The notes under the pieces are model-generated. The model was given only the letters and a program-made list of their open reading frames with translations, was not told the origin of the DNA and made no database searches. Made by a program: the position numbers and the translations under genes. 4,215 bases of DNA from Escherichia phage Qbeta, in the sequence record NC_001890.1; one strand, given 5' to 3'. Shown here one piece after another: positions 2,347 to 4,215 of the stretch. The number at the start of each line of letters is the position of its first letter. Position 1 is the stretch's first letter.

Positions 2347-2368
2347 CTGCATGTCAAAGACACTGCAG
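2347..2368 (+). promoter_or_regulatory. Putative translational operator hairpin spanning the replicase start codon (coat-protein binding site that represses replicase translation, and likely packaging signal)
   Basis: CTGCAUGUC-AAA-GACACUGCAG folds by eye as a 5-bp lower stem (2347-2351 with 2364-2368), a single unpaired C2363, a 4-bp upper stem (2352-2355 with 2359-2362) and a 3-nt AAA loop, with the replicase AUG (2351-2353) inside the 5' arm. The Qbeta operator (AUGCAUGUCUAAGACAGCAU as I recall it) is also a 3-nt-loop hairpin with one bulge containing the replicase AUG. Confidence 0.75.
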
Positions 2369-4111
2369 TCGCGTAAGTCGCTTAGCGGAAAACTCCGCCG
2401 CGCTGCGAACACAAGAATCGTGGTTGAAGGTAACCTCGCACTGTCTATCGCGAATGATCTATTATCCGCGCTAGATGTAGAACCGTTTAATTCGGAAGAA
2501 GACTGTATAAGTCGTTCACCGAAATTCGGCATCTCACCAGATCAATTTAGGAATTCCTATCTTCGTGCTGAGATAATGTCGAAGTACGATTCTTTTAGCC
2601 TAGGTATTAATACCGAAGCCGTAGCATGGGAAAAGTTCCTAGCTGCGGAGGCTGAGTGTGCTAAGACGAATCTGAGACTCTATAGGCCTAACTACAATGA
2701 GGATTTCAATTTCTCATTGGGTGAGACATGTATTCACATGGCTCGCCGAAAAATAGTTAAGCTATTAGGAGATTCAGTTCCGTTTGAGGCTGTGTTGCGA
2801 CATTGCCGGTTTTCCGGCGGTGCCACAACAACGAATAGCCGTCTATACGGCCATCCGTCCTTCAAGTTTGCTCTTGCGCAAGAGTGTACCCCACGGGCTG
2901 TTCCATATGTGCAAGCTTTAAAGGCCTGTACAAACATGGACCTTGGTATTACCAAGGTTAGCCCTTTCAATAAAGCAGTTACTGTACCAAAGAACAGTAA
3001 AACTGATCGCTGCATCGCTATCGAGCCAGGCTGGAATATGTTTTTCCAGTTGGGCATTGGTGGCGTAATTCGCGAAAAGTTGCACTTGTGGAATATCGAC
3101 CTGAATGATCAGACGATTAACCAGGTGCGCGCATATTCAGGCAGCTGTAGCAATGAACTTGCTACAGTGGATCTCTCGAGCGCGAGTGATACTATTTCGC
3201 TTGCGCTCGTTGAGCTCCTGCTACCCCCTGCGTGGTTTAAAGTCCTTACGGACCTTAGGTCACGAAGGGGTATGTTGCCAGACGGTAGAATCATTACCTA
3301 TGAGAAAATTTCCTCAATGGGTAACGGTTTCACCTTCGAGCTCGAGTCGCTTATATTTGCAGCTCTTGCTCGGTCTTTATGCGAGTTACTGAACTTACAA
3401 CCGTCGAGTGTCACGGTCTATGGCGATGATATTATATTGCCATCAGACGCGTGCAGCTCGTTGATTGAAGTTTTCTCCTACGTAGGTTTTAGAACCAACG
3501 AGAAGAAGACCTTTTTCGACGGGCCGTTCCGAGAGTCGTGCGGAAAGCACTACTTTATGGGCGTTGACGTCACACCTTTCTACATACGCCACCGTATAGT
3601 GAGTCCCTCTGATCTCATACTGGTTTTGAACCAGATGTATCGTTGGGCCACGATTGATGGCGTATGGGATCCTAGGGTATATCCTGTATACACCAAGTAC
3701 AGACGTCTGCTGCCGGATATTCTCCGCAGAAATGTCGTACCTGATGGATATGGTGATGGTGCCCTCGTCGGATCTGTCCTTACCAGTCCTTTCGCAGAAA
3801 ATCGCGGTTGGGTTCGGCGTGTGCCGATGATAATTGACAAGAAGAAAGACCGAGTGCGTGACGAGCGTGGTTCATATCTCTATGAACTATGGTCGTTACA
3901 GCAGCTCGAATGTGACAGTGAGTTCCCGTTCAACGGGTCGCTGGTTGTTGGTACCAACGATGGAGTTTGCACTTACCGACACCGAGAGCGGGTTTCTACC
4001 GCTATCAGTGATTCGGTTGGCGCATACGACATCGTATGGATACCGTGCAGTAGTCGTGTCCTGGCTCCCTACGGGGACTTCCGGAGGCACGAAGGTTCTA
4101 TCCTAAAATAG
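2351..4111 (+). CDS. rep: RNA-dependent RNA polymerase, replicase beta subunit, 586 aa
   Basis: Longest ORF, last in the canonical order, ATG 2351 to TAG 4109-4111. It contains the catalytic YGDD motif (TVYGDDIILPSD; YGDD encoded at 3419-3430) and the other palm-domain blocks recalled from the Qbeta replicase (MSKT...LRRAANTRI, CRFSGGATTTN, PFNKAVTVPKNSKTDRCIAIEPGWNMFFQLGIGG, YEKISSMGNGFTFELESLIFA, FRESCGKHY, CSSRVLAPYG). The length is close to the Qbeta beta subunit (about 589 aa). Confidence 0.97.
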   Translation: MSKTLQSRKSLSGKLRRAANTRIVVEGNLALSIANDLLSALDVEPFNSEEDCISRSPKFGISPDQFRNSYLRAEIMSKYDSFSLGINTEAVAWEKFLAAEAECAKTNLRLYRPNYNEDFNFSLGETCIHMARRKIVKLLGDSVPFEAVLRHCRFSGGATTTNSRLYGHPSFKFALAQECTPRAVPYVQALKACTNMDLGITKVSPFNKAVTVPKNSKTDRCIAIEPGWNMFFQLGIGGVIREKLHLWNIDLNDQTINQVRAYSGSCSNELATVDLSSASDTISLALVELLLPPAWFKVLTDLRSRRGMLPDGRIITYEKISSMGNGFTFELESLIFAALARSLCELLNLQPSSVTVYGDDIILPSDACSSLIEVFSYVGFRTNEKKTFFDGPFRESCGKHYFMGVDVTPFYIRHRIVSPSDLILVLNQMYRWATIDGVWDPRVYPVYTKYRRLLPDILRRNVVPDGYGDGALVGSVLTSPFAENRGWVRRVPMIIDKKKDRVRDERGSYLYELWSLQQLECDSEFPFNGSLVVGTNDGVCTYRHRERVSTAISDSVGAYDIVWIPCSSRVLAPYGDFRRHEGSILK

Positions 4112-4215
4112 GGTAGCACCTGGGAGGGGTGCTATACGCACCCTAGGTTAGCAAACTTAAACTAACCTTCTCGAAAGAGAGAGTTGAGGGCTCTGCTTTG
4201 CCCTCACTCCTCCCA
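4112..4215 (+). other. 3' untranslated region with three predicted hairpins and a single-stranded ...CUCCUCCCA-3' tail (replicase initiation end)
   Basis: Exact inverted repeats read from the sequence: 4114-4120 tagcacc with 4128-4134 ggtgcta (7-bp stem, 7-nt loop); 4145-4151 aggttag with 4162-4168 ctaacct (7-bp stem, A-rich 10-nt loop caaacttaaa); 4185-4190 tgaggg with 4201-4206 ccctca (6-bp stem, 10-nt loop). The window ends in CCCA like leviviral genomes. Confidence 0.8.

Follow-up and report, generated by a model that had tools for sequence, protein, structure and literature searches.

The closest described system is the 3′-terminal domain of phage Qβ, which is known from a model by Beekwilder et al. 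(1995; summarised in PMC3561173) and from cryo-EM (PMC8880383). Its closing helix, ld IX, is present in all known Leviviridae and defines the 3′-terminal domain (PMC3561173), and in the cryo-EM model of the Qβ genome, the last six nucleotides, CCA included, fold back onto positions 4124-4129 (PMC8880383). The replicase of Qβ starts at the penultimate C of a single-stranded CCA-3′, the terminal A being non-templated (PMC4200798), and the host protein Hfq is the Qβ host factor that helps the replicase to reach the 3′ end (PMC8956599, PMC6071253). Replication of Qβ requires a long-range pseudoknot (Klovins & van Duin 1999, cited in PMC3561173; PMC4176380), and together with a neighbouring long-range helix, this pseudoknot brings the 3′ domain to an area just downstream of the S1/replicase M-site (PMC4176380). 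Three hairpins of the Qβ domain have a protein partner in the particle, namely the maturation protein for U1, a coat-protein dimer for U2 and an internal coat-protein dimer for R1, and mutants of Qβ in U1 or R1 fail to incorporate A2 (PMC8880383). Hairpin V has been noted for its large adenine-rich loop in MS2, Qβ, SP and AP205, and a 'short extra helix' sets the 3′ UTRs of the Qβ group apart from those of the SP group (PMC3561173). The terminus ...UCCUCCCA-3′ has been given as a signature (PMC6071253).

The window analyzed here is the whole stretch of 4215 nt, with a Qβ-like gene order: A2 at 56-1321, the coat protein at 1343-1744 with read-through to 2332, and the replicase at 2351-4111. The replicase and A2 proteins that it encodes are identical to the database entries 'Qbeta virus (strain MX1)', and positions 4112-4215, which follow the replicase stop TAG at 4109-4111, are accordingly the 3′ UTR of phage MX1. 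The closest genome in the phage collection was M11, with 88.8% nucleotide identity over the full length, and Qβ strains were ~75% identical to the MX1 genome. The original prediction, made for this UTR, had described three independent hairpins, an A-rich loop as a candidate host-factor site, and a single-stranded tail. It had also named Hfq as the Qβ host factor that aids the replicase at the 3′ end, which fits the literature cited above, and initiation at the penultimate C, which is established for Qβ.

We compared MX1 with 16 further Qubevirus genomes, namely M11, seven Qβ-group records and eight records of the SP/FI/NL95 group. The FI record is truncated at both ends and was used solely for the pseudoknot and long-range-helix checks; the 16 genomes with complete 3′ ends, MX1 among them, were folded independently. 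The minimum free energy (MFE) structure of MX1 was computed in three contexts: for the UTR by itself, for the final 131 nt and for the full 4215-nt genome. Three previously unexamined metagenomic MX1-like genomes (JGI, found via their A2 proteins; 88% identical) were added. All of them end before the last 24-40 nt and are therefore uninformative on U1 and the tail, and two of the three have unrelated 5′ extensions. A protein-guided replicase scan of IMG/VR returned distant leviviruses alone, and these were of no use for covariation because their amino-acid identity was at most 45%.

On these data, positions 4093-4215 very probably form the 3′-terminal domain of a Qβ-group phage, a multi-helix junction that would work as its Qβ homologue does. 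In the proposed arrangement, ld IX (CUCCCA/UGGGAG) would stack on R1 and enclose U2, V, a short GAAA-tetraloop helix and U1. The elements are as follows.

4093-4121, plus strand: R1, the last hairpin of the replicase gene, which spans the stop codon UAG and has the arms AGGU.CUAUCCUA and UAGGGUAG.ACCU and the loop AAA
4114-4134, plus strand: the first hairpin of the original prediction, UAGCACC-UGGGAGG-GGUGCUA, an exact repeat whose pairing is in competition with R1, ld IX and U2
4121-4126, plus strand: the 5′ strand of ld IX, UGGGAG, which pairs with the 3′ terminus and is part of the repeat 4121-4131/4205-4215
4127-4143, plus strand: U2, GGGUGC-UAUAC-GCACCC, with ensemble pairing probabilities of 0.98-1.0
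4145-4168, plus strand: hairpin V, an exact 7-bp repeat with the stem AGGUUAG/CUAACCU and a 10-nt A-rich loop, CAAACUUAAA, at 4152-4161
4169-4180, plus strand: the short helix, UCUC-GAAA-GAGA, with a GNRA-type tetraloop, found in the MFE structure with P 0.90-0.99
4181-4209, plus strand: U1, the 3′-terminal hairpin, GAGU(U)GAGGGC / GCCCUCACUC, with the loop UCUGCUUU at 4192-4199; the last stem of the original prediction, 4185-4206, forms the inner portion of it
4210-4215, plus strand: the 3′ terminus, CUCCCA-3′, the 3′ strand of ld IX and predicted replicase initiation site

Three exact 7-bp inverted repeats (4114-4120/4128-4134, 4145-4151/4162-4168 and 4185-4191/4200-4206) do lie after the replicase stop, as had been claimed, and they are jointly improbable by chance: among 5000 dinucleotide shuffles, exact hairpins of at least 7 bp occurred at a mean of 0.098 per 104 nt, and P(>=3) was 0.0002. 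The claim of a structured 3′ UTR belonging to a Qβ-like replicon was likewise borne out, by the folding energy of the UTR (MFE -49 versus -29.6 kcal/mol for shuffles, z=-6.2) and by covariation across Qubevirus genomes. Two further inverted repeats are present, TGGGAGGGGTG (4121-4131) with CACTCCTCCCA (4205-4215) and GGGTGC (4127-4132) with GCACCC (4138-4143), and the MFE structure in all three contexts takes these two pairings rather than the 4114-4134 hairpin. The same helices were obtained from the UTR, the last 131 nt and the whole genome, with ensemble probabilities of 0.85-1.0 for nearly all probed pairs. For example, R1 was present in the MFE structures of both the 131-nt and the whole-genome folds, its probed pairs 4098-4104/4110-4116 had P 0.99-1.0, and the pairs of hairpin V had P 0.85-1.0. 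In U1, the inner pairs had P=1.0, and three of the four outer pairs had 0.97-0.99, the fourth having 0.49. The folding check thus retained the proposed stems at 4145-4168 and 4185-4206 but not that at 4114-4134, which was missing from the MFE structures of the UTR, the last 131 nt and the whole genome (P=0.000).

We then compared base pairing among genomes. A 15-genome MAFFT alignment showed 10 pairs changing on both sides, but it set the Qβ and SP groups out of register in hairpin V and the short helix, and RNAalifold consequently returned from it no more than ld IX, U1 and a part of U2. In a 9-genome Qβ-group alignment, where one misplaced gap in V led to an undercount of that hairpin, 91.9% of cells were paired, compared with 41-55% in slid controls, and 12 pairs changed on both sides; none of 500 shuffles reached the observed values. 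Because of the errors in both alignments, changes were counted helix by helix from the independent per-genome folds, the arms being transcribed from those folds, so that these counts are biased towards the proposed structure. All 16 independent folds shared one plan: R1, the closing helix, U2, a hairpin with an A-rich loop, the short helix (in the Qβ group only) and U1.

Compensatory changes were found in each helix apart from ld IX. R1 was paired in 97-99% of cells, with 6 of its 11-12 pairs compensatory (nine Qβ-group genomes); in particular, A4118, a base of the predicted first hairpin, pairs with U4096 of R1 in MX1 and in two of the metagenomic genomes, and M11 and the third metagenomic genome have C-G in place of this U-A pair. 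U2 had four compensatory pairs out of six, with 98.8% of cells paired among 14 genomes and 100% within the Qβ group, and in hairpin V, 4/7 pairs were compensatory and all cells were paired (nine Qβ-group genomes). The short helix was also fully paired in nine genomes, with one of its four pairs compensatory, a U-A pair in MX1/M11 that is A-U in the Qβ strains; it was absent from the SP-group folds. U1 was paired in 94% of cells (14 genomes), with compensatory changes in 2/10 pairs, and the core of its loop, CUGCUUU, which contains the conserved motif UGCUU, was identical in 16 of 17 genomes. The 4114-4134 hairpin, on the other hand, had 34.9% of cells paired and no compensatory change (nine Qβ-group genomes), so that the covariance check upheld V and U1 but gave nothing for the first hairpin. 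The ensemble probabilities and the comparative test, with A4118 covarying with U4096 in R1, therefore indicate that two of the three predicted hairpins are real. The observation behind the original prediction was partly confirmed and its interpretation partly supported; the UCUC-GAAA-GAGA helix at 4169-4180, R1 at 4093-4121, the closing helix 4121-4126/4210-4215 and the pseudoknot complementarity described below had been absent from it.

The Qβ 3′ domain, from the same genus, has the same helix order as that of MX1, and the two share the UGGGAG/CUCCCA helix, the signature terminus, the CUGCUUU loop core, an AAAGCAG sequence 1243 nt from the 3′ end, and the short extra helix of the Qβ group. 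They differ by compensatory changes in U2 (GGGUGC/GCACCC in MX1, GGCGCC/GGCGCC in Qβ) and in the V stem (AGGUUAG/CUAACCU versus AAUUGUGA/UCACAAUU), as well as in the V loop (CAAACUUAAA versus AUAAAUUA), the short-helix loop (GAAA versus UUAC) and U1, where MX1 has a bulged U4185 and a C-G closing pair; moreover, the exact competing repeat 4114-4134 is found in MX1 alone and not in Qβ. The 3′ UTR of M11 (AF052431), 93% identical over the last 176 nt, has the same helices, V stem and U1 loop. It differs from MX1 in the R1 pair noted above, in its U2 loop (AUUAU versus UAUAC), V loop (11 versus 10 nt) and short-helix loop (AAAA versus GAAA), in an A·C mismatch in U1, and in a 4114-4134 hairpin of only 5 bp. 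The SP group (SP, NL95, FI) shares ld IX, U2, a hairpin V with an A-rich loop, the U1 loop and the pseudoknot partner. However, it has three hairpins inside ld IX, without the short helix, a U2 of 8 bp, an ld IX of 5 bp followed by an unpaired A, and the V loop AAAGAAAGAAAA, with two to three consecutive A-R-N triplets. An Rfam scan of the whole window found no family on the 3′ element at E<=1, its sole match being a chance-level mir-451 elsewhere in the window (E=0.71; 20 bits, compared with a gathering score of 66.5).

The clearest departure from the original prediction concerns the 3′ tail, CUCCUCCCA, which had been taken to be single-stranded. Positions 4210-4214 pair with 4122-4126 in every MFE structure, with ensemble probabilities of 0.91-1.00, and the tail is paired in 16/16 independent folds; in addition, 4207-4209 pair with 4181-4183 and extend the U1 stem, which in the longer folding context leaves only the terminal A largely unpaired. 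When the last 9 nt were forced open, the best energy rose from -49.0 to -38.1 kcal/mol. The ld IX helix was 100% paired, with UGGGA/UCCCA invariant among 14-15 genomes, and covariation consequently speaks neither for nor against it; its support is thermodynamic and comparative (by conservation) in MX1 and structural for Qβ, in which positions 4124-4129 are the homologues of MX1 4121-4126. The last eight nucleotides of the window (4208-4215), TCCTCCCA, correspond to the Qubevirus signature terminus, ...UCCUCCCA-3′, and do not vary among the 15 genomes whose 3′ ends are complete. The 3′ end of MX1 is sequestered, the opposite of the free-tail proposal.

These results bear on three other readings of the 3′ end. 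Three independent hairpins with a permanently single-stranded tail open to the replicase would account for the joint improbability of the three exact repeats and for the need of the replicase for a single-stranded CCA-3′ in its active site (PMC4200798). However, the energy of such a structure lies 18.8 kcal/mol above that of the Qβ-type fold (-29.4 versus -48.2 kcal/mol), its first hairpin lacks both ensemble probability and conserved pairing, a single chance 7-bp hairpin is expected in ~9% of shuffles, and the 3′ tail is paired at P>0.9, in all the independent folds and in the cryo-EM model of Qβ (PMC8880383); we consider it highly improbable. The 4114-4134 repeat is instead a competing pairing of the 3′ arm of R1 with the 5′ arm of U2, outside the supported structure. 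It might be argued that this repeat is a selected alternative conformer, in which a 9-bp re-pairing would trap UGGGAG within or beside a loop after ld IX opens and so free the CCA tail. Indeed, with the tail forced open (the last 9 nt unpaired), and not otherwise, the MFE structure contains this hairpin in an extended form of 9 bp (4113-4121/4127-4135), and a core of 5-6 bp, GCACC/GGUGC or GCGCC/GGUGC (with G·U), is kept in all five MX1/M11-clade sequences. The two outer pairs, and hence the full 7-bp form, are nevertheless unique to MX1, no equivalent conserved pairing occurs in the Qβ strains or the SP group, one extra 7-bp hairpin is not rare by chance, A4118 covaries with U4096 of R1, and the conformer requires the melting of three well-supported helices, so that such a selected switch seems very unlikely, if a little less so than the free-tail structure. 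If true, this pairing would give the MX1/M11 clade a release switch of its own and could reduce its dependence on Hfq. Finally, the CCA-3′ end, together with the presence of EF-Tu and EF-Ts in Qβ replicase (PMC4200798), could suggest a tRNA-like structure such as certain plant RNA viruses have, but ARAGORN found no tRNA-like or tmRNA-like element, the Rfam scan matched no family at E<=1, and the five-helix junction contains no mimic of an acceptor or T-arm. A tRNA-like structure was rejected on the negative ARAGORN result and the missing acceptor mimic, and its probability is close to nil. The Qβ-type domain with a paired terminus is the reading retained below.

We further analyzed the possible long-range contacts of the domain, which involve the following segments upstream of R1.

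2972-2978, plus strand: the candidate pseudoknot partner, AAAGCAG, a complement of the U1 loop that lies in the replicase gene (codons AAU-AAA-GCA-G)
2978-2987, plus strand: the 5′ strand of a long-range helix, GUUACUGUAC, directly adjoining the pseudoknot site
4045-4054, plus strand: the 3′ strand of that helix, GUGCAGUAGU, ~40 nt upstream of R1

The U1 loop core CUGCUUU (4193-4199) is complementary over 7 nt to AAAGCAG at 2972-2978, with a duplex energy of -6.9 to -7.9 kcal/mol, and the upstream segment is unpaired in the whole-genome MFE structure. AAAGCAG lies at a fixed distance from the 3′ end in each group of the 17 reference genomes, all of which contain it (1243 nt in the Qβ group, 1212 in the SP group and 1194 for FI, whose record is truncated); the three truncated metagenomic relatives have it intact as well, with AAC in place of the flanking codon AAU. 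The codons AAU AAA GCA were nucleotide-invariant in the 17 reference genomes, compared with synonymous variation in 11 of 15 neighbouring codons that are invariant in their amino acid (Fisher P=0.043). No compensatory change was found for the pseudoknot, both strands being invariant; the sole loop variant (HL4-9, CUGCUUAG) is uncompensated, and an IMG/VR scan with the pattern GCCCNCNCTCCTCCCA for U1-loop variants gave chance matches in DNA phages and SP itself. By homology with Qβ, 2972-2978 is probably the upstream partner of a replication pseudoknot, and it may serve the same function in MX1.

The adjacent helix 2978-2987/4045-4054 forms 10 bp in 12/12 Qβ-group genomes and 9/10 bp in six SP-group genomes, with two compensatory positions between the groups. 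It was not predicted in the whole-genome MFE structure, and its support is therefore comparative. This helix is probably the interaction of Klovins et al. 1998. A long-range partner for the V loop was also sought and rejected: the complement of the loop, UUUAAGUUUG, occurred at chance frequency, and at its best site, 2861-2870, complementarity to the Qβ loop is lacking.

With respect to the middle hairpin, the original prediction of a stem at 4145-4168 with an A-rich loop proved correct. The loop CAAACTTAAA (4152-4161) is 60% A and contains no G, compared with 24% A in the genome, and V loops were 50-83% A in every clade although their sequences and lengths differ. It resembles the distal-face (A-R-N)n/(A-A-N)n mRNA sites of Hfq (motif in PMC3936774) in being a single-stranded, A-rich and G-poor loop near a helix to be remodelled. 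Unlike these sites, however, the MX1 loop consists of two isolated AAA triplets split by CUU (AAA-CUU-AAA), without an A-R-N run; since no two A-R-N triplets follow one another in it, it matches the distal-face motif only weakly. Within the genus, the V loop of the MX1/M11 clade is the poorest A-R-N candidate.

In the proposed mechanism, this loop, ~55-65 nt from the end, would be the most plausible single-stranded landing site for Hfq. In Qβ, Senear & Steitz 1976 reportedly placed the host-factor footprint at ~-63 to -38 from the 3′ end, which would cover hairpin V. Binding of Hfq at the MX1 V loop is suggested by this analogy with Qβ. Alternatively, V might mainly have a packaging or virion role, as a maturation-protein contact or in the tertiary structure of the junction, with Hfq binding elsewhere. 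Hairpin V has been suggested as a maturation-protein site in MS2 (PMC3561173), and the entire 3′ UTR of Qβ, which lies in the junction beneath the maturation protein, binds A2 in EMSA (PMC8880383); the weak A-R-N motif of MX1 and the drift of loop length (from 10 to 13 nt) and sequence within the MX1/M11 clade would also agree with such a role. Nonetheless, the contacts reported for Qβ are those of U1 with the maturation protein and of U2 and R1 with coat protein, none being reported for V (PMC8880383), and what is kept in the loop is A-richness rather than sequence, as expected of a distal-face ligand of Hfq, an expectation that the two to three consecutive A-R-N triplets of the SP-group loops also meet. 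A mainly packaging role is therefore a minority reading, though a far more serious one than those considered for the tail, and since Hfq would act in the cell and a packaging contact in the virion, the two roles are not mutually exclusive.

Taken with the Qβ literature, the MX1 fold is consistent with a mechanism in which the CCA-3′ is held base-paired, so that a minus-strand start at the penultimate C would require opening of the 3′ end, for which the host chaperone Hfq may supply help. Hfq is likely needed because the 3′ end is sequestered and not because it is exposed, and taking the tail as free would lead to a wrong mechanistic inference on why Hfq is needed. Pairing of the U1 loop with 2972-2978, ~1240 nt upstream, together with the adjacent helix, could bring the 3′ end close to the internal region that the replicase and S1 bind. 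Inside the particle, this domain may also serve as a capsid adapter, with U1 contacting A2, U2 a coat-protein dimer and R1 an internal coat-protein dimer. The fold, its conservation and covariation, and the complementarity and sequence constraint of the pseudoknot were observed in MX1 and its relatives; the protein contacts, the dependence on Hfq and the requirement for replication would hold in MX1 by analogy with Qβ.

The 3′ domain of MX1 matches the published 3′-terminal domain of Qβ and is, in that sense, an already known textbook element, and MX1 itself is a phage whose sequence and name have been in the databases for a long time. The present analysis adds helix-by-helix covariation that includes three metagenomic genomes, and the observation that the A-rich loop of MX1 is a poor canonical Hfq motif, and its main value lies in the correction of the earlier reading. 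The Qβ-type 3′ domain is a classic case of one RNA element used for both replication and assembly.

The pseudoknot site, the AAAGCAG at positions 2972-2978 of the replicase gene that is complementary to the loop of the 3΄-terminal hairpin U1, was found to be directly adjoined by the following candidate pairing:

2978-2987 (GUUACUGUAC) with 4045-4054 (GUGCAGUAGU): 10-bp long-range helix

Sequence comparison indicated that this helix is kept across 18 genomes of Qubevirus, and that the Qβ and SP groups differ by compensatory changes at two of its positions. The pairing was absent from the minimum-free-energy fold of the whole genome. [quoted passage not shown]

Another exact AAAGCAG was observed in the A2 gene of MX1 (566-572) and of M11, and this additional copy was not present in the Qβ strains. 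The plus strand accordingly contains two copies (one each in the A2 and replicase genes), compared with a chance expectation of 0.43 counted over both strands. The U1 loop itself differed in strain HL4-9 (FJ483841), which carries CUGCUUAG at 4199-4206, compared with CUGCUUUG, a variant that cuts the predicted pseudoknot to 6 bp. No compensating change was found in the upstream AAAGCAG of this strain, and the altered loop could be tolerated by the phage or could result from a sequencing error.

Three genomes of the MX1/M11 clade (~88% identity) were recovered as JGI metagenome contigs (L097, L098 and L099), all of which (3/3) lack the final 24-40 nt. Given the unrelated sequence at their 5΄ ends (~1150 nt in L098, including a 344-aa ORF, and 108 nt in L099), L098 and L099 are likely to be chimeric assemblies. 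In all three contigs, AAC replaces AAU as the codon preceding the pseudoknot core, and the A-rich loop of hairpin V in the 3΄ region comprises 13 nt (CAAUAAUCUUAAA).

A complement of the MX1 V loop with one mismatch (UUCAAGUUUG) occurs at 2861-2870. This site was rejected as a loop partner, as such matches appeared at chance frequency (4 observed versus 3.94 expected), and it showed no complementarity to the Qβ V loop. A weak Rfam match to the mir-451 precursor on the minus strand (3271-3345), antisense to the replicase gene, was attributed to chance (E = 0.71; 20.2 bits, compared with the 66.5 set as the gathering score).

One further candidate structure was identified at the 5΄ end of the genome:

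1-20 (GGGTTCCCCCCGTAGGGGGG): G/C-rich terminal hairpin

As the complement of this segment, the 3΄ end of the minus strand would be both structured and C-rich.
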